Virus record (IMG/VR): IMGVR_UViG_3300021961_007031 | Source: a virus | Length of the DNA stretch: 64,000 nt | Direction: 5' to 3' (one strand) | Part shown: piece after piece, positions 14,026 through 51,163 of the stretch | Numbering within the stretch: the stretch's first letter is position 1 | Layout: each line of letters starts with the position of its first letter | The notes under the pieces: model-generated | Databases searched by the model: none | Seen by the model: the letters and a program-made list of their open reading frames with translations, nothing else | Told to the model about the DNA's origin: nothing | Program-made: the position numbers and the translations under genes

Positions 14026-14061
14026 AAGCCCAATTTAGTAGCACCTTAGATAAATAGATGC

Positions 14062-29887: not shown

Positions 29888-30745
29888 ATGAACTACTATG
29901 ATCTCCTTGGTGTAGAGAAATCTGCATCCGCTGACCAGATTAAAAGTGCTTTTAGGACCAAAGCCAGAAGCACTCATCCTGATGCGGGCGGAGATCCTGA
30001 GGATTTTAAGCGTCTAAATGAAGCATACGAAACACTTAAAGATCCAGGCAAACGTGCTGAATATGACCACGCTAGTAGTGGTGCTGGGCGTATACATGTA
30101 AACATTAACGGCAGTCATCATGACATTTTTAGTAATATTTTTAGAGACATGCACAATGTTTTTGGACAGGAACAGGGACCTTTTGCTGGAACAAGAACAT
30201 ACAGGCGCCAACAACGCAATAAAGATTTAAGTATAGAGTACACTTGCAAATTAGAAGACACACTTGCAGAGCAGGTAAAGCAAGTTAGTGTAAAACAAAT
30301 AAGCGGCGATCGTAGATTAGTAGAAATAAAAATACCAATTGGTGTAAAAAATGGTCAGACAATAAGGTATCATAAACTTGGTGACAATACATTTAAGGAG
30401 TTGACGCCAGGCGATTTACATGTTAAAATTAATATTATTCCAACAAGATTTGAAATTGAAGGGAATAATTTACACTTAAATCATACTATAGACTGTTTTG
30501 AAGCAATACTGGGCACAACTATACAGGTTAGGACACTGGAAGGCAAAACTCTAAATACAAACATTCCGCCTGGCATACAGCATGGTATGAGCATGGGATT
30601 AAAAGGTCATGGGTTGTATGAGTTTAACAACCCTGGTAACAGAGGCGCATTGCTGGTAAAAGTAAACATCAAAATACCTGAGAACCTAACTCAAGAACAA
30701 TTAAATATGATTAGAGCCATTAAGGAAGTTACAGTTGAAACATAG
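29888..30745 (+). CDS. dnaJ: DnaJ/CbpA-type (class B) co-chaperone
   Basis: J domain with HPD; C-terminal GDL.V domains; no Zn finger. Confidence 0.92.
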   Translation: MNYYDLLGVEKSASADQIKSAFRTKARSTHPDAGGDPEDFKRLNEAYETLKDPGKRAEYDHASSGAGRIHVNINGSHHDIFSNIFRDMHNVFGQEQGPFAGTRTYRRQQRNKDLSIEYTCKLEDTLAEQVKQVSVKQISGDRRLVEIKIPIGVKNGQTIRYHKLGDNTFKELTPGDLHVKINIIPTRFEIEGNNLHLNHTIDCFEAILGTTIQVRTLEGKTLNTNIPPGIQHGMSMGLKGHGLYEFNNPGNRGALLVKVNIKIPENLTQEQLNMIRAIKEVTVET

Positions 30746-33002
30746 TCCTCAAATTGACAAAATTGTAGAAATTACAATGAAGGAAGCAAAAAAACGCAAT
30801 CACAAATATGTGACTAGCGAACACTTGCTTTATGTACTACTGGGCAACGAACATATATCCGGAATTCTTATAAAATTTGGTGTCCAATTGGACTTGTTTA
30901 TTGCAGAAGTTCAGGAATATCTGGACAATAAACTAAAGCCAGAAGAGCAACCTGTAAACGAACCTAAAAAAACACATACTATTGACAGAGTATTCAACCG
31001 TGCGTATTCACAAGTATTGTTTAGTGGACGCAATGAACTATTAGTAATGGATGTATTAATTAGTTTACTTGCTGAAGCAAACACTATGAGCAGTTATTTT
31101 CTACTCAAATACAATGTTAACAAAGAAGAACTAATAGAATTTATTACTGTAAATTTTGCCAAAGACTTGTATAATGATCAGGCAAGCAAGTATTATGAAA
31201 AGTTATTAGAAGAATATACAACTGACTTTACTAAACTAGCAAAAGATGGTAGTATAGATCCTGCTATTGGTAGAGATTCAATAATAGATGACATTTGCCA
31301 GACTATGGCTAGACGCAACAAAAGTAATGTATTAATGGTTGGAGATCCTGGTGTAGGTAAAACTGCTATAGCAGAAGGTTTGGCAATTAAAATAGTAGAA
31401 GATGATGTTCCTGTATACCTCAAGGATCATAAAGTTTACAACTTGGATATTGGCGTGTTACTTGCTGGTACTCAGTATAGGGGTCAGTTCGAAGAGCGTG
31501 TAAAAGAAGTAATGGAAGCGTTAATGAACGAGGGTAAATGTATCTTGTTTATTGACGAAGCACATACAATGAAGGGTGCTGGTGCTGGATCCAGCGGCGG
31601 TACTGACTTTGCAAACATGCTCAAACCATATTTGGGCCGTGGTAAACTTAAAGTTATTGCAAGCACTACCTGGGAAGAATACACAGAGTCATTTGAAAAA
31701 GACCGTGCTCTAATGCGACGCTTCTATCGTGTTACTGTAGATGAGCCAACACCTGCACTAGCAAAGCAAATACTTAATGGTACAGTAAAGTACTATGAAG
31801 ATTTCCATAATATGGATATTTCACCTGACAGTATTGACAGTGCTGTAGATTTAAGTGTCAGATTTATGACTGACAAGCGTTTACCTGACAAGGCATTTGA
31901 TCTAATTGACAGTGCCTGTGCAAGACAGAGACTACTGGGTGTAGAACAACCTACAATTACCAAGGAACTTATTGAACTAGAGTGCAGTAAAATTACTGGT
32001 ATCCCATTGGATCAATTAAGCGATACAGTGACTAAAAGCGTAAACCTCATAAAGGTTGAGGAAAAGATCAAGAGCAAAGTTTATGGTCAGGACGAAACTG
32101 TAGAAAAGGTAATGGAAAAAGTTTATGTTAGTAAAGCAGGGCTTGCTCCTAATGATAAACCAATTGGCGTATTCCTTTTCCTAGGCCCAACTGGCACTGG
32201 TAAAACAGAACTTGCTAAACAACTTAGCCAAAGACTTACAATGCAACTGTTACGCTATGACATGAGTGAATATCAGGAACGTCACAGCGTTGCCAGATTT
32301 ATAGGCGCACCTCCTGGCTATGTTGGATATGATGATAGCAGTTTAGGCGGCGGGTTATTAATTAGAGATATAGAGCGCAATCCTAACAGCGTTGTCCTGT
32401 TTGACGAAATAGAAAAAGCACACCCTGATGTAACAAATGTTCTCTTACAACTTATGGATGAAGGGTTTATTACTGCTACAAACGGCAAGCGTGTAGACTG
32501 TCGTAACACAATTGTTATTATGACTAGTAACCTGGGTGCACAGGAAATGGAACGCGAGCCCATTGGTTTTGGTAGAACTTCTCGTTCAGGCGAAGATGAC
32601 AAAGCAATGCAAGAGTTTTTTAGACCAGAGTTTAGAAACCGCATTGATGCTGTTTGCAAGTTTAACAAACTTGATGCACTTACAAAACGCAAGATTGTTA
32701 TAAAGTTCGTACAGGACTTTACCGACCAATTACAGGAAAAAGGCATCAGTTTACATATAGACGAACCAAGTGTAGATTATATCCTAGATAGAGGATTCGA
32801 TGAAAAGATGGGTGCAAGACCTGTTGCTAGAACTGTAGACAAATTACTAAGAGTTCCAGTTAGTAAGGAGTTAGTGGTTGACAACTCGCTAAAAGGCTGT
32901 AAAATAAAGGTTAGAGTTAATAAACATGGTTTACTCCTTAAATTTGTAAGGCAAAATGATGACGAATCTAAGTCAGTTAGAGAAATTAACGTCAAAGTAT
33001 AA
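30735..33002 (+). CDS. clpA: ATP-dependent Clp protease ATPase subunit ClpA-like
   Basis: Clp-N; GDPGVGKT and GPTGTGKT Walker A motifs; RLPDKA; GAPPGYVG; IGF loop; no ClpB middle domain. Confidence 0.92.
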   Translation: MKHSPQIDKIVEITMKEAKKRNHKYVTSEHLLYVLLGNEHISGILIKFGVQLDLFIAEVQEYLDNKLKPEEQPVNEPKKTHTIDRVFNRAYSQVLFSGRNELLVMDVLISLLAEANTMSSYFLLKYNVNKEELIEFITVNFAKDLYNDQASKYYEKLLEEYTTDFTKLAKDGSIDPAIGRDSIIDDICQTMARRNKSNVLMVGDPGVGKTAIAEGLAIKIVEDDVPVYLKDHKVYNLDIGVLLAGTQYRGQFEERVKEVMEALMNEGKCILFIDEAHTMKGAGAGSSGGTDFANMLKPYLGRGKLKVIASTTWEEYTESFEKDRALMRRFYRVTVDEPTPALAKQILNGTVKYYEDFHNMDISPDSIDSAVDLSVRFMTDKRLPDKAFDLIDSACARQRLLGVEQPTITKELIELECSKITGIPLDQLSDTVTKSVNLIKVEEKIKSKVYGQDETVEKVMEKVYVSKAGLAPNDKPIGVFLFLGPTGTGKTELAKQLSQRLTMQLLRYDMSEYQERHSVARFIGAPPGYVGYDDSSLGGGLLIRDIERNPNSVVLFDEIEKAHPDVTNVLLQLMDEGFITATNGKRVDCRNTIVIMTSNLGAQEMEREPIGFGRTSRSGEDDKAMQEFFRPEFRNRIDAVCKFNKLDALTKRKIVIKFVQDFTDQLQEKGISLHIDEPSVDYILDRGFDEKMGARPVARTVDKLLRVPVSKELVVDNSLKGCKIKVRVNKHGLLLKFVRQNDDESKSVREINVKV

Positions 33003-36754: not shown

Positions 36755-36769
36755 CAAATAAATACATGT

Positions 36770-39724
36770 ATGAAAATAAATGAAGCAGTTCAGCAGGTTG
36801 TAGCCATATATCCTGGCAGATTTCACCCTTTCCATAAGGGTCACGCCAGCGTCTACAACTATCTTCGCAACAAGTTCGACACTGTTTTCATTGCTACAAG
36901 TGATAAAGTAGACCCGCCACGCAGTCCTTTTAGTTTTGCTGAAAAGCGAGAAATGATGATTGCTGCTGGTATTCCGCCCAGTGCTATTGTCCAAACTAAA
37001 AATCCTTATCAAGCACAAGAAATACTACAAGCATACGACCCAGCAACAACCGCAGTTGTGTTTGCTGTTAGCGAAAAGGATATGGCTGAAGATCCTAGAT
37101 TTAGTTTTGCTAATAAGAAAGACGGGTCCCCAAGTTATTTCCAGCCTATGGCGCCAAACGCAAAACAAATGCAGTCCTTTGACAAGCATGGTTATATTAC
37201 TACAGTGCCTACACTAGATTTTACTGTAGCAGGCGAACCCATGCGTAGTGCTACAGAGCTACGCCGCAACTTTGCAAATGCTGATCCCGAAACTCAAAAG
37301 ACAATGGTCAATGATTTGTATGGTGCGTATAATGATAGAGTTTACCAAATACTAAGCAGCAAACTTGCAGAAAGTTTAATGTTAGAAGACTATGCTAAAC
37401 TAACCAATATTATAAATCGTATCTGGCAACTAGACCTAGAACGTCCACTAAACGAAGAAGTTAAACGCAAAGTTCTAGCAAACATAAAGTTGGCTACAGA
37501 AGCCTGGAGCGAAAAGTACAAGCGTAGCATAAACTGCAACAATCCAAAAGGATTTAGCCAACGAGCTCATTGTCAGGGTCGCAAAAAGAACGAAGACATA
37601 AATGAAGCATTTGATAGTCCTTATCCACTGGAATGGCAAGTCGAAGCACCCAATGAGTATAGTGCTTGGGCAAAAATTCCTTTTCAAGGTGGCGATTTTA
37701 GCTGGTTAAATGTGGACTTTGATCAACCAACACAGGGCAATTTTGCTATTGAATTTACACTAGGCGGCAGAACCAAAGCATCAGGGAAAGGAGATGAGTT
37801 TAGGATTTTCGCTACTGTTATAGAAGCAATTAAGCAGTGGTGGAAAAAAATAGATCAACGATTTGTTGATAGCATATACTTTAGTGCATCAAAAGATCCT
37901 AACGACAGCGAACGCAGACATGTATTATATTCAAGATTTGCTAAACAACTTGCTAGCCAGATTGGTTATACACTTGACGTAACAGATAAAGGCAGATCAG
38001 TATCATTTCTTTTAACCGCACCAAAGAGAACGTATCAAGTTAAAGAAGAGAGCGGACCTGAGGTCACAATGTGGACTAACCCAGACTGGTTTGGTGCAGA
38101 TGTAGACACTGACTATTGGAATAAACAGCCTGTTAAAGTAATAGACATAGACAAGCTCGTCCCTTATGAACCAGAAGATAAGATGCAGGATCCCAAGTCT
38201 GCTGCTAATATGCAGGCTATTGCTAAAAGGATTCAAGCAGGCGAAAAGATAGATCCTATTGTTATCAGCAAACATGAAGGCAAATGGTTGATACTAGATG
38301 GGCATCATAGATACTTTGCTAGTAAATTAGCTGGTGCTAAAAAAGTAAGAGTGGTAGTAGTAGATCCTAAATATATCACATGGCGTGATGATGTGCCAGA
38401 TGAGGATTATTATAACGAAGTATTAGAGAACCAATACAGCGACCTGGAACTAGCAATCATGGAAGGCGGCCACAGTCTAGAAGAAGGTGTTGGGCGTGAT
38501 GTTGCTAACTGGGCAAAGAGACAGTATAGAAAAGTAGTACCCTTTACACAAGCAGATACAAAAGACATGATTGACAACATTGCTAAAGAAAAGGGTATAG
38601 ATCCTCGTGTTATGCAAGCAATGGCAGACAAAGAATCTTCTTATAATACTGGCGCAATTGGCGACAAGGGCAAGTCACATGGGTTATTCCAGTTACAAAA
38701 TATTGCAGTAAAAGACATCAATGACTGGTATAAAACAGATTATACTGACAGTGATAGAATGGATCCTGAGACCAATGCTCGTATGGCTGCTATGTATTTA
38801 CAATTAGCAAAAGACAAATACGGTGCTAAAAATGATGCGGAAGCTATCGCTATGTTTAATGGCGGACCCAAGGCCTTAACTAACCGAAATGCAATAAATT
38901 ATGCCAGAGATGTTGTAAGCAGAATGAAACGCAACCAACAACGAGTGGTTAGAGAAGCAGGCGTAGGCAAGATTACCAAACAAAATGCAACCAAAGACGC
39001 TCCTATTGGCAGCGAGTTTGCTAATGTTAAAAAGTTAGGTTTGGGTAGCGGCAAGCCACCTGAACTACACAAAAAGGCTCGTAAGAACAGCGACCCAAAT
39101 ACATTATTCAATATTGGATTGGCGGAAGGCAAAGAAGGCAGTTACCTACTACAACTAGAGCGTGACGATGATCTGCTAGTATTACACATTACACATAGCA
39201 GAACAGGCAAGCGCACCGAAGTGCGTGGCAAACCAGATTACGAGGGTGATGGATACGATCCCAATGATCAACTGCACCAATTGCTTGACAAGATTGGTAA
39301 GGCAGCAAGCATTAGCGACTTAATGAATGGCGAACTAGTAAGCATCAACCCTGTTCATCCACAGGGCCCAAGTGCTAAAGCACATGCTGAAAAAGCATTT
39401 GTAAGTGAGGACTTTGCTCAAGACCTAGAAGCAGAATTTCCTGGATTAGACTTAGATTTGTATACGACACGATCAGGTTACATATTGAGCAAGATTGTTC
39501 TTCCAGTAGGTGAACGCAACGAAGGCACTGGCAGCAAAGTAATGCAACGAATTGTTGACATGGCTGATCAGGAAGGAAAACTTATTGCACTAACACCTGA
39601 TACTGCATTTGGTGGCACAAAGAGTAGACTAATAAAGTTCTACAAGCGTTTTGGTTTTGTGCCCAACAAGGGACGCAACAAGACTTTTGATTTTAGAGAA
39701 ATAATGGTTCGCTATCCAAATTAA
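36770..39724 (+). CDS. Multidomain polyvalent protein: HIGH nucleotidyltransferase, ParB/Srx-like, lytic transglycosylase, GNAT and unknown modules
   Basis: GRFHPFHKGH/SATELR; ILDGHHR; KESSYN..GLFQL..AIAMFNGG; R.EGTGS...LIKFYKRFGF. Confidence 0.85.
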   Translation: MKINEAVQQVVAIYPGRFHPFHKGHASVYNYLRNKFDTVFIATSDKVDPPRSPFSFAEKREMMIAAGIPPSAIVQTKNPYQAQEILQAYDPATTAVVFAVSEKDMAEDPRFSFANKKDGSPSYFQPMAPNAKQMQSFDKHGYITTVPTLDFTVAGEPMRSATELRRNFANADPETQKTMVNDLYGAYNDRVYQILSSKLAESLMLEDYAKLTNIINRIWQLDLERPLNEEVKRKVLANIKLATEAWSEKYKRSINCNNPKGFSQRAHCQGRKKNEDINEAFDSPYPLEWQVEAPNEYSAWAKIPFQGGDFSWLNVDFDQPTQGNFAIEFTLGGRTKASGKGDEFRIFATVIEAIKQWWKKIDQRFVDSIYFSASKDPNDSERRHVLYSRFAKQLASQIGYTLDVTDKGRSVSFLLTAPKRTYQVKEESGPEVTMWTNPDWFGADVDTDYWNKQPVKVIDIDKLVPYEPEDKMQDPKSAANMQAIAKRIQAGEKIDPIVISKHEGKWLILDGHHRYFASKLAGAKKVRVVVVDPKYITWRDDVPDEDYYNEVLENQYSDLELAIMEGGHSLEEGVGRDVANWAKRQYRKVVPFTQADTKDMIDNIAKEKGIDPRVMQAMADKESSYNTGAIGDKGKSHGLFQLQNIAVKDINDWYKTDYTDSDRMDPETNARMAAMYLQLAKDKYGAKNDAEAIAMFNGGPKALTNRNAINYARDVVSRMKRNQQRVVREAGVGKITKQNATKDAPIGSEFANVKKLGLGSGKPPELHKKARKNSDPNTLFNIGLAEGKEGSYLLQLERDDDLLVLHITHSRTGKRTEVRGKPDYEGDGYDPNDQLHQLLDKIGKAASISDLMNGELVSINPVHPQGPSAKAHAEKAFVSEDFAQDLEAEFPGLDLDLYTTRSGYILSKIVLPVGERNEGTGSKVMQRIVDMADQEGKLIALTPDTAFGGTKSRLIKFYKRFGFVPNKGRNKTFDFREIMVRYPN

Positions 39725-39739
39725 AAAAAGAGACCATCA

Positions 39740-40738
39740 ATGAAAAAAACATTGTTAATTACATTTGGTTGTAGTTGGGTCTACGGCGTTGGCGTTAATT
39801 ATGAAGAAGGCATGTCCCGGGAAGATTATCAGCTGAATGCGTGGAATCCTGAACTATGTGATGAATACAGTTTTAGAGGTTTAATTAAAAAAAATTTAAA
39901 TATTGATACTAAGAATTTTTCCTTAGGTGGCAGTAGCAATCAAATGCAATTTAGAGAGGCAAAACAATATTTTTTCTCTCAACAATTTATAGACCACAAA
40001 GATAGTTACGATAACATTATTGTTTTATGGGGTATTACCTCAACTGCCAGAAATGAGTTTTATTCTGTAGAGGACAAAACATTCCTAAACGTCCTTTACA
40101 ATACATTTTTTGATAAATTTGACCCACTTGCTAAAAGCATAACGAAAAAAAATTATGACCTTATAAAACGTCCTAACTGGCCTTCGTGGGAAGATTATAA
40201 TAATCTTAACCTAGACAATATTGATTTAGAAACTTTAAAACAAATTGTTATATCTGAAAAATTACATTTACGAGATATGCAAAAATCTACTACTTTTAGA
40301 CATCTGTTGGAACACATATTAGGAAAATTTTCCTGGGACGTGGATGCAGCAATATATGAACTTTCGCTAGAGATTAAACTTTTTAATAGTTTTTTCGAAA
40401 GTAGTAACATAAAATTTTTATGGTATGATTTGTTTAATCACCATGATTATAAAAAAAGTTTTAAAAAATTTGTTGATCCAAGGGCAGAGTGGTTCGAACT
40501 AAAAAATTTTTTACAGTATGATAACAAATCAAGAGACATATTATCCTTAATATTAAAAAATAATAATAGTTTTGTAAAGGACATAGCATATCATTTATCT
40601 GAGTGGAAAGATGACAATAAAAAAATAAATATGGGTGTAAAGAAAAAGTTATTAAATCCAATTAGTTTTCATCCTACTAAATTGGGGCACGTAGAGATAG
40701 CAAAAGTCTTACAACCAGAAATAGAAAGGTTTGTTTGA
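39740..40738 (+). CDS. SGNH-like protein, AT-rich
   Basis: FGCSW.YG, GGSSN, HPT..GH; internal WPSWEDY motif. Confidence 0.65.
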   Translation: MKKTLLITFGCSWVYGVGVNYEEGMSREDYQLNAWNPELCDEYSFRGLIKKNLNIDTKNFSLGGSSNQMQFREAKQYFFSQQFIDHKDSYDNIIVLWGITSTARNEFYSVEDKTFLNVLYNTFFDKFDPLAKSITKKNYDLIKRPNWPSWEDYNNLNLDNIDLETLKQIVISEKLHLRDMQKSTTFRHLLEHILGKFSWDVDAAIYELSLEIKLFNSFFESSNIKFLWYDLFNHHDYKKSFKKFVDPRAEWFELKNFLQYDNKSRDILSLILKNNNSFVKDIAYHLSEWKDDNKKINMGVKKKLLNPISFHPTKLGHVEIAKVLQPEIERFV

Positions 40739-41223
40739 TGTCCAAAGAAAAAGATGTAATAATACACTTTGTACGATTCTGCAAAGACCAACTAAAATTG
40801 CCTACAGTGCCCAAAATTATTATTAAAGACAAAATTGACGACACAACATTTGGCCAATACAATACGCTAAAGAAAGACATTAGTATACGCACTGGCGACA
40901 GACATATTATGGATGTCTTGAGAACCCTAGCACACGAGCTAGTGCACCATGGCCAGAGACTAATTACACCAGACCTAGATGGAAGCGATGGAAGCGCACA
41001 TGAAAATCAAGCCAATGCTATCGCTGGAGTATTACTTCGTAAATATGGTGAGGACAATCCCAAACTCTACGAACATCTAGAAGAAAGAGCAAGCATAGGA
41101 GTACCATTAAGTAGTGGACTTACGGTAACTATTGCGCCACACAGAGCTCTGAAAGTTAAAAAATCCACACCGGGGAGGCATAGCTATGGAAACCCTAAAC
41201 CTAAAAGAAAAAATTCTAAATGA
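40735..41223 (+). CDS. HExxH zincin-like metallopeptidase domain protein
   Basis: TLAHELVHH.Q...EN.ANA.AG. Confidence 0.7.
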   Translation: MMSKEKDVIIHFVRFCKDQLKLPTVPKIIIKDKIDDTTFGQYNTLKKDISIRTGDRHIMDVLRTLAHELVHHGQRLITPDLDGSDGSAHENQANAIAGVLLRKYGEDNPKLYEHLEERASIGVPLSSGLTVTIAPHRALKVKKSTPGRHSYGNPKPKRKNSK

Positions 41224-41509: not shown

Positions 41510-41772
41510 TGAAACTAGAGTGTGAGATATTAACAGAAGACTATAGTAACACCCCTGCTTACAGGGTATTTGTTAATGGCGAGCTAATGACTGAACGTGA
41601 TTATGTTGTACCACCAGGCGAAGTAGGACATTACAATTTTATGTGTTACTTAACTTTGCCCGGTGGTGAAAATAAACTTGAAATTCAAGGAATAGGTCAT
41701 AAGTTTAATATAGGCACGATGTGGTTAGATGACAAACAAATAGCTCACAACCAAGGAGTATTTCAGATATGA
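41509..41772 (+). CDS. Hypothetical protein
   Basis: P.YRVFVNGELMTER. Confidence 0.6.
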   Translation: MKLECEILTEDYSNTPAYRVFVNGELMTERDYVVPPGEVGHYNFMCYLTLPGGENKLEIQGIGHKFNIGTMWLDDKQIAHNQGVFQI

Positions 41773-41975
41773 GAATAGACGAATTATTAGAAACAGCAAG
41801 CGCAGGTGCTACAAGCAGCGGCAATATTGCCACTGTGGCAAACCCTACAGTTGCTAGAGGCAAAGGCAAACCAAAAATGCAAAAACCTACTGATAATGCT
41901 CTGGATATGGATGCTAATTTGTTTAGTGGCGGTGCTATTAAGAGAAACACTTCAAAGCCATTAGGTGCTTTGTAG
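41769..41975 (+). CDS. Putative internal head protein
   Basis: MRIDELLE|TASAGATSSGNIA. Confidence 0.55.
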   Translation: MRIDELLETASAGATSSGNIATVANPTVARGKGKPKMQKPTDNALDMDANLFSGGAIKRNTSKPLGAL

Positions 41976-42010
41976 CATAAATACATATATAATCTTTTAA
42001 AGGTACAACT

Positions 42011-43105
42011 ATGAGATTCCGCGATTTTAAACCAGTTGTTAAAGAGAGCAAAACTCCAGAGCAAATTAAACTTGACTACTGTAGAGGGCTTATTACAAAA
42101 GAAGACGCGGTTTCTAGTCTTAAAAAGTTAGCGGAAGAAACTGACGCTGAAAAAGAATTTAATGCAGCATTTGATAAAGAATACAAAAAAGCATTTGGCG
42201 ACAAAAAGCCAGCACAATCTAAAAGAGAGCCTGAAAAATTTGGTGGTCTCGGAAGCCAGCAAGCATACGACGAATATAAACAAGATTTAGAAAAAAGACA
42301 AGCATCTATGCTTATGCGCCGTGCCAAACCAGGCGACGCAATGGATCCTTGGGATCCAGATGATGGTAATGTATATAAAGACGAAACAACATGGCATTTA
42401 GATCCGAATTTTTCAGGATCACCAGGCGACTTTGAGCAACCTTGGATGAAAGTAAACACAAAATATACAGTAGGCCCAGATGGTCGTATAGATTTTGGGC
42501 AGCGTAAACCCTACAAAGACGACAGACCTCCTCAATACCAAGAATTATCAGATAAAGAATGGGCTGCATTTAAAAAATCTCAACTAAGAGTAGATTATCC
42601 AAATACTCCTAATGACAAATTGCCATGGTACTTAAGAAAGGACGATCCAGATTTTGTACCATATATGAGCGGCAAAAAACCATCAGGTGGTGATGCAGAT
42701 CCAGCTGGTATGACTGGTGCTACTGCCGCTGGTACTCCATCAAGGGGTGGTGATGCAGATCCAGGCGGTATGACTGGTGCTGATGCTGCTGGTACTCCAG
42801 CAAAACCATCAGGCAAAGGACCTAACTTACAAACTAATTTAGGTAGAAGTAGAACTGACAAATCAAATCAGTCTGACGATACTGGGCCAGATGATAAAGA
42901 AGCAGCCCGTATTGCAAAAAGATCAGAAAAAAGACAAGCAGCGAAACAAGATAGTTTAGACGACTTGAGTTTTGGCAACGCATTTAAAAGAGCCCGTAAA
43001 GCACATGGCGGCGCCGGCGGCATATTTACTTGGCGTGGTAGAAGATACCAAACAAATATAAAAGGCGAACGATATGTTAAGAATCCAACGCCGGTACAAA
43101 TATAA
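42011..43105 (+). CDS. Putative internal head protein with 20-aa tandem repeat
   Basis: MRFRDF...VKE|S; C-terminal SF..AF..AR...F.W.G..Y.T motif; CATAAATA upstream. Confidence 0.55.
   Translation: MRFRDFKPVVKESKTPEQIKLDYCRGLITKEDAVSSLKKLAEETDAEKEFNAAFDKEYKKAFGDKKPAQSKREPEKFGGLGSQQAYDEYKQDLEKRQASMLMRRAKPGDAMDPWDPDDGNVYKDETTWHLDPNFSGSPGDFEQPWMKVNTKYTVGPDGRIDFGQRKPYKDDRPPQYQELSDKEWAAFKKSQLRVDYPNTPNDKLPWYLRKDDPDFVPYMSGKKPSGGDADPAGMTGATAAGTPSRGGDADPGGMTGADAAGTPAKPSGKGPNLQTNLGRSRTDKSNQSDDTGPDDKEAARIAKRSEKRQAAKQDSLDDLSFGNAFKRARKAHGGAGGIFTWRGRRYQTNIKGERYVKNPTPVQI
42686..42799 (+). repeat. 60-bp tandem repeat (about 2 copies, coding)
   Basis: GGTGGTGATGCAGATCCAG..GGTATGACTGGTGCT at 42686 and 42746. 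Confidence 0.9.
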
Positions 43106-43117
43106 CTAGGAAAAAAC

Positions 43118-43663
43118 ATGAAAGACATACTTAACAAACTTGATAAAATCTTAAATGAAGGCATGCTAGGCGACATGGCACATGCCTGTGAAGCAGATCA
43201 TGAAGTTCAGATGGCTCGTGCAGATCTTTTCAAGATTGCAAAGTATGCTATTAAACTACATGACATGATGAAAAATGTTAGCGAAATGGAAGGCATCCAG
43301 GGCTGGCAGCAAGCAAAGATTACAAAGGCTGCTGATTATTTAAGCAGCGTTTATCACAATTTAGACTATGAAATGAGTCCACTTAACCAAGCTCCAGAAG
43401 GTTCAGACACTGATGAAGTTATGGCACAGATGGCTTATGATCTTGCCGCTGATGATGAAATTGAAGAAGATAAAGTTCCATTGCCACCAAAGCGTCCAGA
43501 ACCAAAGGCAGCGTCATACACTGATGCACAGAGAAAATCAATGGACGATGCAGTAGACGTAATTACAAAGTCAGCAGAAGAAGAAGATGCAAAAAAGCGT
43601 AGAAACGAATCTACAGACTTAGGTAGAGCAACTAGAAAATTCAGCGATTGGGGAAAAAGATGA
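43118..43663 (+). CDS. Putative internal head protein
   Basis: ILNE|G; DHEVQMARADL...WQQAKITKAADYLSSVYH. Confidence 0.55.
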   Translation: MKDILNKLDKILNEGMLGDMAHACEADHEVQMARADLFKIAKYAIKLHDMMKNVSEMEGIQGWQQAKITKAADYLSSVYHNLDYEMSPLNQAPEGSDTDEVMAQMAYDLAADDEIEEDKVPLPPKRPEPKAASYTDAQRKSMDDAVDVITKSAEEEDAKKRRNESTDLGRATRKFSDWGKR

Positions 43664-44178
43664 ACGACTTTACAAGCCTAGTTAAAAAACTAAACGAGAT
43701 TAGTGACAGAGCAGAAGTTACTACAATTAATGAAAGTGTAGAACAGCCTGTAGCACGAACATCTAGTGATGTGAAGTCAACAGCAAAAATCCTACGCAAG
43801 TTTAGTGAAATTGAATCTGAAATCGTTGCTGAAGAAGCTCAAGCAAAAGAAGATGTTACTAGCGATATCAGCAATCGTTTTAGAGAGTTTATGAAAAGCG
43901 AAGTTGGTCAGGGTAATGACCTTGAATCAGTAAACACTGCTGTTCACGAAGCCCACACAACTGCAACTATTTTATCAGGAAGCATAGGTGTACTAGCTGA
44001 CAGTTTAAAGCGTCAACTAGAAGCTACAAAAGAAGGTGGCGTATTACAACGCATGGTAGAACGTGAAGGTGGCGATACAACTCACATTGCAAAGGCATAC
44101 GAAGCTCTCCAATTGGCCGCAGAGGCTCTTGACGCAGCACATATGTATGCAGTAAAATTAGACGACCAAAAGAAGTAG
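43660..44178 (+). CDS. Hypothetical acidic helical protein (possible scaffold/internal)
   Basis: Multiple hydrophobic-x-E sites (INE|S, VAE|E, VHE|A). Confidence 0.5.
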   Translation: MNDFTSLVKKLNEISDRAEVTTINESVEQPVARTSSDVKSTAKILRKFSEIESEIVAEEAQAKEDVTSDISNRFREFMKSEVGQGNDLESVNTAVHEAHTTATILSGSIGVLADSLKRQLEATKEGGVLQRMVEREGGDTTHIAKAYEALQLAAEALDAAHMYAVKLDDQKK

Positions 44179-44188
44179 AGAAAAAATT

Positions 44189-44842
44189 ATGAGAGCATTT
44201 GAGTTTACCAACGAACAAACAAAAGTTGCCCCGTTAACCAGAGTTGCACCACTCACTAGAGTTGCTCCTGGTACCCGTGTTACAGGAAGTGAACCTAGTA
44301 GATGGGCAAAAAGTATGGGTAGCGATGCTGCTGCTAATGAAAAGAAACGAGCAGAAATATTAGCTCGTATGGAACGAGAACGCCCTGATTTCGAAAGAGC
44401 TGTACAAGGTCTGTCTGATACAGAATTAGCTGCTGCCAGAGAAAAGTATGCACAAAGTTTAGGACTAAGAAATGCACAGGCTATGATAAACCTAGCAACA
44501 GGTTATGAAGCAGGCACAGGACAAATTAATCCAGATTACGACAAAGAACTACAAGCAAACAAAGCAGCCAATACTCAGGATATGACACAATATGGTGCTG
44601 CCAGAAGAGGTAACGCAAGTGTGCAATCTCCTTTTATAAGTTCACAACCTAAAAAGGCTGAGCCTGCACCTACACCAGCAGCACCTACACCTGCTCCGAA
44701 AGCAGATGCAGATGATAACCAAGGCCAATCTCAGGTTGATGCTGTTGCTAAACAAGGACGTTCACAAGTTAATGCTGTTGCCAAATCAGGCATGGATGCT
44801 GTAAATGCATTAATGAGGAACGCTGGTTTAAGAGTAAGATAA
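44189..44842 (+). CDS. Putative internal head protein with VAPLTR repeats
   Basis: MRAFEFTNE|Q; 18-bp repeats at 44225-44281. Confidence 0.5.
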   Translation: MRAFEFTNEQTKVAPLTRVAPLTRVAPGTRVTGSEPSRWAKSMGSDAAANEKKRAEILARMERERPDFERAVQGLSDTELAAAREKYAQSLGLRNAQAMINLATGYEAGTGQINPDYDKELQANKAANTQDMTQYGAARRGNASVQSPFISSQPKKAEPAPTPAAPTPAPKADADDNQGQSQVDAVAKQGRSQVNAVAKSGMDAVNALMRNAGLRVR

Positions 44843-45033
44843 TGCGAGCAAAAGAGTTTCAACCTAAAGCATTGACTGAAGCAGAATTTGACGAAGCAGC
44901 AGGTGAAAAGGATGCTTGCTATCGTAAAGTTAAAGCTCGTTACAAAGTATGGCCCAGTGCATATGCTAGTGGTGCTCTAGTAAAGTGTCGCAAAGTGGGT
45001 GCTGCCAACTGGGGAAACAAGAGTAAAAAGTAA
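44842..45033 (+). CDS. Small basic phage protein
   Basis: DACYRKVKARYKVWPSAYASGALVKCRK, a motif typical of T4-like marine phages. Confidence 0.65.
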   Translation: MRAKEFQPKALTEAEFDEAAGEKDACYRKVKARYKVWPSAYASGALVKCRKVGAANWGNKSKK

Positions 45034-45287
45034 TGCTTATTACAGAAGTAGTACAAGAGGATCTACGAAAATGGTTCAAAGAGAAATGGGTTCGCTTTGG
45101 TCCTGACGGTAAGATACGTGGAGATTGTGCTAGAGGTAGTGAAAGCGAAGGTAAGCCTAAATGTTTGCCACAAAAGAAAGCACACGCATTAGGTAAAAAA
45201 GGGCGCAAGACGGCAGCAAGTCGTAAACGCAGGGAAGATCCCGATAAAAACAGACGCGGCAAAGCAAAAAACGTCGCTACAAAGTAG
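45033..45287 (+). CDS. Small basic phage protein
   Basis: VQE|DLRKWFKEKWV...C.R...KPKC.P. Confidence 0.65.
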   Translation: MLITEVVQEDLRKWFKEKWVRFGPDGKIRGDCARGSESEGKPKCLPQKKAHALGKKGRKTAASRKRREDPDKNRRGKAKNVATK

Positions 45288-45296
45288 AAATAAACT

Positions 45297-46202
45297 ATGC
45301 TATTTTTAAATTACGCTGAGTTTTATTTAACCAACGTATGTAATTTGTCATGTCCAGGCTGTAACAGGTTTAACAGTTTTAATTTTAAAGGGCATCAACG
45401 TTGGTCAGATTTAAAAGACACTTATACTAAATGGGCTAAAGTTTTACACCTAGGCAATTTTGGGATTTTGGGCGGAGAACCATTACTAAATCCTAATTTT
45501 ATGGATTGGTTAATTGGAACAACTGACTTATGGCCCAAATCAACATGTAGGTTAACTACAAATGGTTTTAGACTTAATAAAGTCAAAGGCTTGTACGATG
45601 TATTAAAAAGTCGTCCTAAAATTCAAATGTCAGTTGGTATTCATAATAAAATGCACAAGCGGGAAATAATGAATATTTTAGAAGAATTCCTTGCTGGGCC
45701 GCTTAAAATAGAACACGATAATTCTAATAAATATCAGCAAAAGTTGTATATCACCGATTCTAATGATGTAAAAGTTAGAGTAGAATATAATTGGTGGTTT
45801 CATCAGGGAGCAATCATTCCTAACGATCAAGGAAAGTTAACTTTGCATAACAGTGATCCAGATAAAGCGCATAGTATTTGCCACAGTTCAGAATGTCATC
45901 ATTTTGCATATGGCAAATTATACAAATGCGGCGCCAGTGCGCTGTTTTCAGAGTTTGACGAACAGATAGGTTTAGAACTAGATTCTAAAGATAGAGAATT
46001 AATTAATAATGTAAATTCATTATCAGTGGATGACGATTTAGAAACACAAAAACTGTTTATAGAAAATATAAAAAACCCTATACCACAATGTAAATTTTGT
46101 CCTGAAGTTTATATTGGAGATCAAATTTTTGCCTTAAAGAAAAAGGATATATTGGCCCAGCAACGAGAGAGTACAAATGAGATTTTCCGAGTTAACACAT
46201 AA
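45297..46202 (+). CDS. Radical SAM protein, AT-rich
   Basis: CNLSCPGC, LGGEPLL, TTNG, C-terminal Cys cluster. Confidence 0.85.
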   Translation: MLFLNYAEFYLTNVCNLSCPGCNRFNSFNFKGHQRWSDLKDTYTKWAKVLHLGNFGILGGEPLLNPNFMDWLIGTTDLWPKSTCRLTTNGFRLNKVKGLYDVLKSRPKIQMSVGIHNKMHKREIMNILEEFLAGPLKIEHDNSNKYQQKLYITDSNDVKVRVEYNWWFHQGAIIPNDQGKLTLHNSDPDKAHSICHSSECHHFAYGKLYKCGASALFSEFDEQIGLELDSKDRELINNVNSLSVDDDLETQKLFIENIKNPIPQCKFCPEVYIGDQIFALKKKDILAQQRESTNEIFRVNT

Positions 46203-46734
46203 ACCTACACCAGTAGAATTAGCAATTAAAGAACATATTGCAAGAGGCGTTCCTTTTAGCGAATGCATGTTTCGTCCAGGTAGTAAAGCGTTTACAGAGT
46301 TCTATAACACCCTAAGAGAAATGCGTGATACTCTAGAGTTAGATTGGCAGGATCAGGAACTACTTGATACAGATATTGGCGAATGTGTTGTTATTGAAGG
46401 TGAACGTGTTCCTCTTGATGTTCCTATTGAAGAAGAAGTTGAACTTGATGAAGCAGAATATCAGGGCAAGCAAGTTAAACTTAATTCTCCAAAGCGTGGC
46501 GGAAGCAAAAAGTTCTATGTATATGTAAAGAACCCAAAGACTGATCGTGTTAAAAAAATTAGTTGGGGTGACACAACGGGCCTAAGTGTAAAGGCCAAAA
46601 ACCGCGGCGCAGTTCGTAGTTTTGTTGCACGACATAAATGTATGCAAGCCAATGACAAACTTACTGCAAGATACTGGAGTTGCCGCACACCACGCTATAA
46701 AGCACTTGGTGTTAAAGGCGGAGCTTGGTGGTGA
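46177..46734 (+). CDS. Phage hypothetical protein with basic C-terminal domain
   Basis: LDE|AEYQGK.VKL..P.RG..KKFYVYVKNPK...RSF.ARH.C...A.YWSC. Confidence 0.65.
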   Translation: MRFSELTHKPTPVELAIKEHIARGVPFSECMFRPGSKAFTEFYNTLREMRDTLELDWQDQELLDTDIGECVVIEGERVPLDVPIEEEVELDEAEYQGKQVKLNSPKRGGSKKFYVYVKNPKTDRVKKISWGDTTGLSVKAKNRGAVRSFVARHKCMQANDKLTARYWSCRTPRYKALGVKGGAWW

Positions 46735-46994
46735 GCCCTTATACAGAGTCCCGCAAAGACAATGTAATTACAAGAAAATTTTCCCCTAGCGTTGACAGTG
46801 ACGAACTTGTCTGGCACAGAGACAGGCGTGACCGTAGCATTACTATAGTTGAAGGTACTGACTGGAAACTACAAATGGATAATGAACTTCCAGTAACATT
46901 AAAGCCTGGTGATAGTTTTAATATACCCAAAAACACCTATCACAGAGTAATAAAAGGCACATCTGACCTTGTTGTTACAATACGAGAACACTAG
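46725..46994 (+). CDS. Cupin-fold small protein
   Basis: WHRD...W.LQMD..LP..L.PGD...IP...YHR.IKG. Confidence 0.65.
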   Translation: MVVSPYTESRKDNVITRKFSPSVDSDELVWHRDRRDRSITIVEGTDWKLQMDNELPVTLKPGDSFNIPKNTYHRVIKGTSDLVVTIREH

Positions 46995-47023
46995 ATAAAT
47001 ATCATATATTTGCGGGAATTGCT

Positions 47024-47617
47024 ATGAGAGACCTTATTGACAGATTAAAACTAATCGAAAATTTAGAAAAAGGCGTACAGCCAGACTTTCACTTTATGAT
47101 ATTAGAGGATGGCGAAATCTTTATAATGGAAGGTGATGCAGAAATACAAGCAGTTGTTGATGCAATTAGATCACTAGCAAAGACAGGTGAAGGTAGACAA
47201 ATTTCTCAAAATGTATTTGGTAAAGACCCAGATGATGTAACAGATGAAGAAATTTTCAACACACTAATTGCTCCAGGTTATCAAGCATTAAAGCCATTTA
47301 CTGGAATGATGAAACAAGGTTTAGACTCAGTACCTAGTGGCTACACCCCAAGTCAGATAGCAAAAGCTGGCACAACTCCTTTTGTTGGAGGCTTTGTACG
47401 AGACCAGATCAGAAAACAGATACCTAACCAGAAAGTTGATACAGGCCCAAATAATCTAGGAACAGTAGACATTGATGCTAGTGATCGTGATATTGAACGT
47501 GTATTACAAGCCTATAACAAATTGGGTAATACATTTCCTAAAGCAAAAGACATGTTAGACCAAAAAGATGTTGATGGTGCACTAAGGCAAGTTTACTCAA
47601 GAATGAAAGCAGACTAA
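47024..47617 (+). CDS. Hypothetical late protein
   Basis: MRDLIDRLKLIE|N; GATAAATA upstream. Confidence 0.55.
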   Translation: MRDLIDRLKLIENLEKGVQPDFHFMILEDGEIFIMEGDAEIQAVVDAIRSLAKTGEGRQISQNVFGKDPDDVTDEEIFNTLIAPGYQALKPFTGMMKQGLDSVPSGYTPSQIAKAGTTPFVGGFVRDQIRKQIPNQKVDTGPNNLGTVDIDASDRDIERVLQAYNKLGNTFPKAKDMLDQKDVDGALRQVYSRMKAD

Positions 47618-47934
47618 TGACTAGCTTAAGAAGAATTATAGATATTGTTGAACGTGCAGGCATGGAGTATGTTGCTAACCGTGACTTTACACTTGTAGCA
47701 AAAACTGTTAAGGATGATGTAACATATGCCTTAGGCAGAGTTGATCATGATTACGATGACAACCGCAAAGCTGATTATAGCATTTATAAGTTAGTACGAA
47801 CAGGTGGTTACGAATTCAAGGGTACCTTTTATCCTCAAGATTTCTACACAGAAGTGGAAAGTCTAGACCTAAGTCCATATGTAAAACCAACTGAAGCACA
47901 CAAAGCATTTAAATCCTGGGTAGAGCAACACTAA
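47617..47934 (+). CDS. Hypothetical protein
   Basis: MTSLRRIIDIVE|R. Confidence 0.55.
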   Translation: MTSLRRIIDIVERAGMEYVANRDFTLVAKTVKDDVTYALGRVDHDYDDNRKADYSIYKLVRTGGYEFKGTFYPQDFYTEVESLDLSPYVKPTEAHKAFKSWVEQH

Positions 47935-51142: not shown

Positions 51143-51163
51143 TATGCGTATATAAATATATGC

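Follow-up and report, generated by a model that had tools for sequence, protein, structure and literature searches.

The DNA analysed here, called the window, is a stretch of 64,000 nucleotides (nt) from IMG/VR virus record IMGVR_UViG_3300021961_007031. Its plus strand carries at 36770-39724 an open reading frame (ORF) that is open throughout and codes for a chain of 984 amino acids (aa), named P0001. The source is apparently an uncultured, marine, T4-related jumbo phage. The DNA polymerase encoded in the window shares 43-48% identity with the enzymes of Sinorhizobium phage Phosso, Agrobacterium phage Atu_ph07, Vibrio phage 2.275.O and the Rak2-like jumbo phages (about 45-48% for the nearest cultured phages), and a near-identity DNA search of the phage collection with the window gave no match. 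A sequence-only reading made earlier had described P0001 as a string of unrelated modules whose junctions read hydrophobic-x-Glu (h-x-E), and had proposed that the chain is loaded into the phage head and cut there into separate enzymes. The modules and their neighbours are listed in Table 1.

Table 1. Features in and around the P0001 gene (positions are those of the window; an arrow follows the Glu of a joint and marks the predicted cut site).
Feature	Position	Strand	Remarks
ATAAATA late-promoter-like motif	36758..36764	+	ends 6 nt before the ATG of P0001
Leader MKINE, residues 1-5	36770..36784	+	ends in h-x-E, Ala next
Module 1, HIGH-motif nucleotidyltransferase, residues 6-201	36785..37372	+	ends KLAE↓S
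Small helical peptides, residues 202-244	37373..37501	+	joints LNE↓E at 229 and ATE↓A at 244
Basic Cys/His peptide AWSEKYKRSINCNNPKGFSQRAHCQGRKK and linker NEDINE, residues 245-279	37502..37606	+	35 residues
Alpha/beta domain (phrog_6387), function not assigned, residues 280-426	37607..38047	+	starts AFDSPYP, ends VKE↓E
ParB/Srx-like module with DGHHR, residues 427-553	38048..38428	+	ends VLE↓N
Mini-module NQYSDLELAIMEGGHSLEE, residues 554-572	38429..38485	+	19 residues
SLT lytic transglycosylase, residues 573-729	38486..38956	+	ends VRE↓A
Disordered basic module AGVGKITKQN...NSDPNTLFNIGLAE, residues 730-786	38957..39127	+	N-terminal module in many relatives
Beta-rich domain, YxLQLERD signature, residues 787-880	39128..39409	+	ends VSE↓D
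GNAT-fold acetyltransferase, residues 881-984, and stop codon	39410..39724	+	Pfam match below cut-off, PHROG, fold
332-aa ORF, no family match	39740..40738	+	occupies joint YPQSKQLSE↓SSEKDV of close relatives
161-aa zincin-like module (HELVH) with basic tail	40738..41223	+	separate ORF here; C-terminal module in P0002, P0003 and P0008
Array of small ORFs, most with leaders like T4 capsid-targeting sequences	41769..47934	+	MRIDELLE↓T, MRFRDFKPVVKE↓S, MKDILNKLDKILNE↓G, MRAKEFQPKALTE↓A, others

The description of P0001 as unrelated modules in one chain held up. A CTP_transf_like domain at residues 13-100 (E 5.5e-8) and an SLT domain at residues 600-713 (E 1.7e-13) were found above the Pfam cut-off, with PHROG in agreement for SLT, and the closest folds of module 1, obtained by comparison of an AlphaFold2 (AF2) model, were NMN/NaMN adenylyltransferases and PPAT. 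The matches to ParB_N (465-531) and GNAT (915-964) lie below the Pfam cut-off; the former is backed by a PHROG match and the latter by both PHROG and a GNAT fold match. Residues 877-983 match phrog_10691, a profile of giant phage proteins, and this GNAT module is common to giant DarB-like/PLxRFG polyvalent proteins and to gp63 of Atu_ph07. For the beta-rich module (787-880) an ESM Atlas search gave no usable lead. The smaller pieces also recur: the LAIMEGGH peptide of the mini-module (554-572) was found again in relatives, the AGVGKITKQN module is N-terminal in many of them after leaders such as MKLGE↓F, and the leader residues M1, I3 and E5, together with A6, are invariant among 16 relatives. 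With at least six folded modules plus peptides within 984 aa in a phage context, P0001 has the multi-domain make-up of polyvalent proteins, which unite two to fifteen unrelated domains in a single phage or conjugative-element polypeptide (Iyer et al. 2017), and with SLT, ParB-like and GNAT modules in the chain (and a zincin fused in relatives) it also draws on their set of conflict domains.

All ten motifs quoted by the sequence-only reading are present, namely INE (residues 3-5), LAE (199-201), ATE (242-244), INE (277-279), VKE (424-426), VLE (551-553), LEE (570-572), VRE (727-729), LAE (784-786) and VSE (878-880). P1 is Glu at 10 of 10 sites and P3 is Ile, Leu or Val at nine and Ala at one; by motif match they follow the substrate rule of gp21-type proteases (P1 Glu; P3 Leu/Ile or small) and are predicted cut sites. 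The total of [ILVMF]-x-E motifs in P0001 is 18, about as composition predicts, and therefore their placement, not their number, is the signal. Relatives in the protein database comprise 748 proteins of 541-1722 aa and 1,976 shorter ones, and in these metagenomic sequences (more than 2,700) the modules of P0001 recur, variously ordered and combined. On P0001, the ends of BLAST segments cluster at about 204, 225, 276, 416, 550, 727, 789 and 880. Eight of the 11 homology-breakpoint peaks have an h-x-E no more than 5 residues away, a result matched by 2 of 20,000 random placements. Nine of the 18 sites fall within the 12% of P0001 that lies around breakpoints (binomial 1e-4).

Conservation of the joints was followed in about 240 family proteins by anchoring on the conserved first residues of each module and counting distinct upstream contexts only. 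Glu was found at P1 in 36/36 contexts of the start signature AFDxPYP, in 34/34 of WSxKYK (the basic Cys/His peptide, where Glu stands two residues before the Trp), in 28/29 of YxLxLER, in 11/12 of GAEITMW and, if Glu within one residue is counted, in 46/54 of AGVGxI. Across the family joints P3 is Ile, Val, Leu, Phe or Met, P2 is mostly Asn or Thr, and P1' is Ala, Gly, Ser or Asp. The motif persists behind at least six different upstream modules, for instance behind GNAT (RYPQQDINE↓A), the Cys peptide (GRKKNEDINE↓A) and the beta-rich module (TATTTAFNE↓S), or at the N-terminus; where a module comes first in its protein, a short leader provides it (MKLGE↓FGVG, MKFTEISSTPLTE↓AFDNPYP, MRE↓GYKLQL). 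In 100,008 family residues, a strict form of the motif, h-[NTS]-E-[AGSDN], was counted 357 times, versus 89 ± 9 in shuffled sequences. A signal at the level of DNA was ruled out, since the junction codons differ within the P0001 gene and, in a small sample, among related loci, where the P3 and P2 codons also vary; the constraint therefore acts on the protein.

The sequence-only reading had proposed to look among homologues for gain or loss of modules exactly at these sites, and such cases were found. P0002, which is 97-98% identical to P0001, is without exactly residues 427-553, the ParB cassette, and reads ...TYQVEVSE↓NQYSD over the gap. In P0002, P0003 and P0008 the sequence ...YPQSKQLSE↓SSEKDV comes after the GNAT and leads into a 160-residue zincin module, while the window encodes a 96% identical module as the separate ORF 40738-41223, which begins M-SKEKDV. 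The ORF at 39740-40738 occupies a joint that near-identical relatives keep intact, and it appears to be a gene whose insertion split an ancestral chain there. A change at the joint residue itself was seen in module 1. Stand-alone nucleotidyltransferases of 200-202 aa carry the 8-residue leader MRISDLFE↓A and end at the residue aligned with E201, as ...KITQ. Where more sequence follows, 101 of 110 distinct sequences have Glu at this position; in proteins that end there, Glu was found in 1/35 and Gln in 26/35. The direction of this Glu-to-Gln change is what a cut site would predict, the sequences being related and not 145 independent events. In these comparisons the joint appears to work as an evolutionary plug, at which modules become fused, drop out or separate into genes of their own, and it is near certain on sequence grounds that the joints are true module boundaries at which h-x-Glu is selected.

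Such joints could in principle stay uncut, with P0001 acting whole as a polyvalent protein and the h-x-Glu motifs being relics of the N-terminal leaders of once separate genes or neutral hinges that allow in-frame exchange. Stand-alone modules have leaders ending in h-x-E, so fusion alone would put the motif at joints, and the polyvalent proteins of other phages function without such linkers. A relic should decay, yet the Glu is nearly invariant over many contexts and is replaced by Gln exactly when nothing follows; moreover, P3 and P2 codons differ, which leaves no extended stretch of identical DNA that could guide exchange. Weighing these points together with the protein-gel and fold evidence given below, we consider it unlikely that the joints remain uncut.

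Next to the joints themselves, the related contigs bear on which protease would act on them. The T4 gp21-type protease family Peptidase_S77 was found in 3 of 6 related IMG/VR contigs (G002, G005 and G006), which include the two most complete (87% and 88%), and was not found in the fragment contigs G001, G003 and G004; G001, a close relative that is 57% complete, has no Peptidase_S77 or Gp23 match and, being a fragment, says little. The head block of G002 (306 kb) has the order portal, acidic core protein, protease, scaffold, capsid protein. The density of [ILVMF]-x-E per 100 aa is 6.9 in the scaffold and 5.4 in the acidic core protein, and 0.5-0.7 in two tail-like proteins of the same contig. 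In the capsid protein, the first 50 residues have 3 sites (...ILAE↓G, ILE↓N and HLSE↓AATSG) and the other 365 residues have none; the capsid N-terminus of G006 shows the same motif pattern. This distribution in G002 and G006 is the one expected if the protease of the clade cuts at h-x-E like T4 gp21. The gp21-type proteases of related contigs (L088 12799-13434; L091 7426-8061) themselves begin M..YLKE↓N...M(V/I)(T/I)E↓S, and these N-terminal sites recall the LIE near the N-terminus of T4 gp21, which hints at self-processing.

The head protease has a competitor in the zincin-like metallopeptidase module (HELVH), which the earlier reading had missed and which might cut the joints before packaging or after injection. 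It is fused to the chain in P0002, P0003, P0008, P0030 and P0047, is encoded 1 kb downstream in the window, and with one copy per genome could act in trans; embedded metallopeptidases (MPTases) were argued to process polyvalent proteins (Iyer et al. 2017, PMC5512222). The joints, however, are universal, whereas HExxH is present in just 13 of 120 long family members. Glu at P1 with a hydrophobic P3 is the rule of gp21-type proteases (PMC9026906), no such rule being on record here for a zincin, and in relatives the scaffold and the capsid propeptide bear the motif too. The ORF 40738-41223 weakly matches the metallo-protease profile phrog_87 (E 1.6e-4) and has, like the neighbouring leader-bearing ORFs, no Pfam match. 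Cutting of the joints by the zincin therefore seems to us decidedly improbable.

Homologous modules were also found in cultured phages. In gp63 of Atu_ph07 (AUZ94875) the order is leader MRLFQLLE↓T, GNAT, joint GSITE↓T and a body of 28.0 kDa; its GNAT is 54% identical to residues 918-983 of P0001, and the body aligns with the paralogue gp60 from gp60 residue 9, right after the leader MRWDQLTE↓A. Calculated masses of gp59-68 agree with Table S5 of Attai et al. 2018 (PMC6102473), and the gene numbering is therefore validated. According to the same table, gp55-65 and gp67-69 are all virion-associated. The 41.4-kDa gp63 (13 peptides, 39% coverage) has its maximum in gel band 8, alongside the paralogues of 29-30 kDa, and other 39-41 kDa proteins of this phage (gp21, gp106 and gp142) peak in band 5 (PMC6102473). 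The band position of gp63, smaller than the predicted size, fits a cut at E119; a protein running at the size of a cut product argues against uncut joints. Atu_ph07 also has gp21- and gp23-like genes (PMC6102473 Table S3). Polyvalent proteins are delivered into the recipient cell along with the DNA, and for P0001 the presence of the homologous module in Atu_ph07 virions is an indirect hint of such delivery.

Six adjacent paralogues of Atu_ph07, gp58-gp63 (L003, 45.7-54.5 kb), begin M(R/K)W(H/D/Q)QL-x-E or MRLFQLLE; all are in virions, and the source paper annotates them just as hypothetical proteins (PMC6102473). The Cys/His peptide of P0001 is also the C-terminus, preceded by FRE↓S, of SSM2_108 from the Synechococcus cyanophage S-SM2, a protein of 142 aa (L002 2818-3246) whose gene lies between those of the terminase, gp16 and gp17, and whose leader, MKTLKQFLKE↓T, is T4-like. 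In four GNAT-bearing comparison phages (Pseudomonas Skulduggery, Klebsiella ZX1, Vibrio 1.185.O and Tunturiibacter Tunturi_5), the x-h-N-E↓A linker that comes after this module in the marine T4-related family was found behind the GNAT end (M-x-R-E/Q-P) in 0/4 giant polyvalent proteins, the head proteases of those phages lying outside the comparison.

The proposal that the sites fall in linkers was only partly supported by the predicted structure. The AF2 model was built from alignment A1, which is scrambled and holds 62 mosaic proteins in 6,341 columns, and has a mean pLDDT of 64. Confident blocks cover residues 9-200, 280-416, 594-725, 790-878 and 880-984, and confidence is low at 421-593 (the ParB region) and 725-789. 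Sites 279, 426, 729, 786 and 880 lie at block edges or in low-confidence stretches, as proposed, while sites 201 and 244 lie inside predicted long helices, which favours uncut joints. Since the alignment is scrambled and the model moderate, the test of sites in linkers rests mainly on homology breakpoints and not on the fold; the fold evidence from this model is compatible with cut joints and weaker than the comparative evidence.

The ATAAATA that the sequence-only reading had taken for a late promoter is indeed present before the gene. Of 15 plus-strand copies in the window, 11 end no more than 40 nt upstream of an ORF start, where 0.8 are expected, a figure that is inflated by AT-rich intergenic DNA. 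Because the copies cluster before ORF starts, ATAAATA is promoter-like by position; the total of 15 is near chance, yet the placement before ORF starts is not, and chance was rejected as its source. No Shine-Dalgarno sequence was found before the start of P0001. ATAAATA ends exactly 6 nt before an ATG at 14050-14061, 36758-36769 and 51152-51163, in all three cases without a Shine-Dalgarno sequence, and these three transcripts would be leaderless or nearly so if the ATAAATA copies are T4-type late promoters. Seven further copies lie 16-28 nt upstream of starts, mostly at 23-28.

A ClpA-like double-AAA ATPase (30735-33002) is encoded about 4 kb upstream of the P0001 gene, and a ClpA-like unfoldase was also observed a few kb from jointed polyprotein genes in G002 (L089 12605-14941). 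Such a setting among non-structural genes beside an unfoldase, kept in G002, would suit a cytoplasmic polyprotein that is never packaged and is processed in the infected cell by some other phage or host protease into takeover enzymes, and the leader is too short for the T4 targeting rule. On the other side, a wall-cutting SLT module is easiest to understand in a protein that reaches the cell from outside, gp55-65, the homologous proteins of Atu_ph07, are virion-associated, and the motif matches presumed substrates of the head protease. We regard a purely cytoplasmic role as very improbable.

Downstream, the 332-aa ORF (39740-40738) starts MKKTLLITFGCSWVYGVG and has no Pfam or PHROG match. The basic tail ...PHRALKVKKSTPGRHSYGNPKPKRK of the zincin ORF also makes up the final 50-70 residues in many family members without HExxH; it could be a separate terminal module, perhaps with a role in DNA binding or loading. 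The leaders of the small ORFs at 41769-47934 resemble the 10-19-residue capsid-targeting propeptides of T4 that end at a gp21 site (PMC9026906), pieces of two of these ORFs appear as modules in family polyproteins, and the small ORFs are probably further capsid cargo. Inside the array lies a radical-SAM ORF (45297-46202, Pfam E 2.2e-8), itself without such a leader. Stand-alone nucleotidyltransferases with MRISDLFE↓A (P0163-P0201) are very common in marine metagenomes, which suggests that many T4-related phages may package an NMNAT/PPAT-like enzyme; restoration of NAD+ as their role is a guess.

We propose that P0001 is a cargo polyprotein that would be packed into the capsid and cut there. 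It would consist of effector modules, each folding on its own, and of small peptides, connected by short linkers that end [I/V/L/F/M]-x-Glu with a small residue next. The chain would be made late in infection and taken up into the prohead, where the phage gp21-type (Peptidase_S77) maturation protease would cut after each joint Glu. With the boundaries given in Table 1, this would yield up to eleven products: the leader (1-5), the nucleotidyltransferase (6-201), two short helical peptides (202-244), the Cys/His peptide (245-279), the alpha/beta (280-426) and ParB/Srx-like (427-553) modules, the 19-residue peptide (554-572), SLT (573-729), the disordered basic peptide (730-786), the beta-rich domain (787-880) and GNAT (881-984). 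These products would exit with the DNA at infection. We give this full model a probability of about 0.55; that the joints are cut we hold to be likely, at roughly three in four, and that the head protease does the cutting at somewhat less than that. We infer packaging, cutting, the identity of the cutter, ejection and the role of each module; ejection of the products into the host is suggested by T4 and by the presence of SLT, and host acetylation and nucleotidylation as activities of the modules are guesses.

Several observations weigh against this model. The leader MKINE↓A has 5 residues, compared with 10-19 in T4 targeting peptides, though it ends in a site. The P0001 gene sits among genes for a ClpA-like ATPase, a transporter and replication, away from head genes, and the gp21-type cuts on record chiefly trim off N-terminal propeptides instead of freeing separate enzymes (PMC10052503). 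Many family sequences are related, so that the counts overstate the number of independent events. The virions of Atu_ph07 were purified with polyethylene glycol only, non-structural proteins were also detected in them, and the argument from the gp63 band is indirect (PMC6102473). Finally, the helices at 201 and 244 and the poor AF2 model of 421-593 count on the same side.

A broader version of the proposal is that T4-related jumbo phages share a general cargo code, by which any module behind an h-x-Glu joint or a short leader would be loaded and then released by the maturation protease; we advance it tentatively, as its chances seem to us a little short of even. If P0001 is such a cargo chain, one gene would deliver a changeable mix of enzymes and small basic peptides and gain new cargo as cassettes are swapped at the joints. 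Cutting of the joints would mean that many activities for host takeover and anti-defence are pre-loaded in a compact form, which would explain the fast diversification of the cargo. The motif would also provide a sequence rule by which virion cargo could be predicted for thousands of genomes of uncultured marine phages, and the joints would then be natural candidates for cleavable linkers with which to load foreign proteins into T4-type capsids.

T4-type proteases have short cleavage motifs, in which the cut follows a Glu, and the capsid-targeting peptides of T4 end in such a site (PMC9026906). Like P0001, the T4 proteins IPI-III and Alt have a short leader ending hydrophobic-x-Glu and unrelated, fast-changing cargo bodies; in T4 the protease is known to cut after Glu and the cargo enters the host with the DNA (PMC9026906, PMC3012670), steps that are predicted for P0001. 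In contrast to P0001, with about nine modules and a site at every joint, IPI-III and Alt have one cargo per gene, from which a terminal propeptide is removed; if the general cargo code holds, the principle of the T4 internal proteins would reach from single proteins to polyproteins. In the giant phages phiKZ, 201phi2-1 and SPN3US, many proteins inside the head are cleaved after Glu by gp21-related proteases, frequently at several positions (PMC9026906, PMC10052503), with S/A-x-E and A-x-E as the cut sites of phiKZ and SPN3US (PMC9026906, PMC10052503). These cuts degrade long propeptides and, unlike in the P0001 family, the reports are without enzyme chains or shuffling at the sites. In Atu_ph07, gp58-gp63 carry leaders such as MRWHQLTE↓A and MRLFQLLE↓T, and gp63 has the same GNAT and an internal SITE↓ joint; gp63 has two modules versus nine in P0001, and its source paper is without discussion of processing.

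The polyvalent proteins (Iyer, Burroughs, Anand, de Souza and Aravind 2017, PMC5512222) share with the P0001 family the ParB-like, SLT, GNAT and zincin domains. An embedded metallopeptidase was proposed for them, with no conserved joint motif (PMC5512222), whereas the P0001 family has a site at every joint, mostly without a peptidase; if the general cargo code holds, polyvalent proteins would gain a processing route that needs no embedded peptidase. Our literature search, which was incomplete and is no proof of absence, found no paper in which chains of shuffled effectors are described as joined by head-protease sites. Capsid targeting with gp21 processing in T4 is textbook knowledge, and so are polyvalent proteins. 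In T4, a change of the site Glu to Asp blocks processing. What is new here is the Glu-to-Gln switch, the finding that a near-identical relative differs by clean cassettes, the comparison with the GNAT of other phages and the reading of the Atu_ph07 proteome. If its joints are cut, the P0001 family would connect T4 internal proteins and polyvalent proteins, two fields so far apart.

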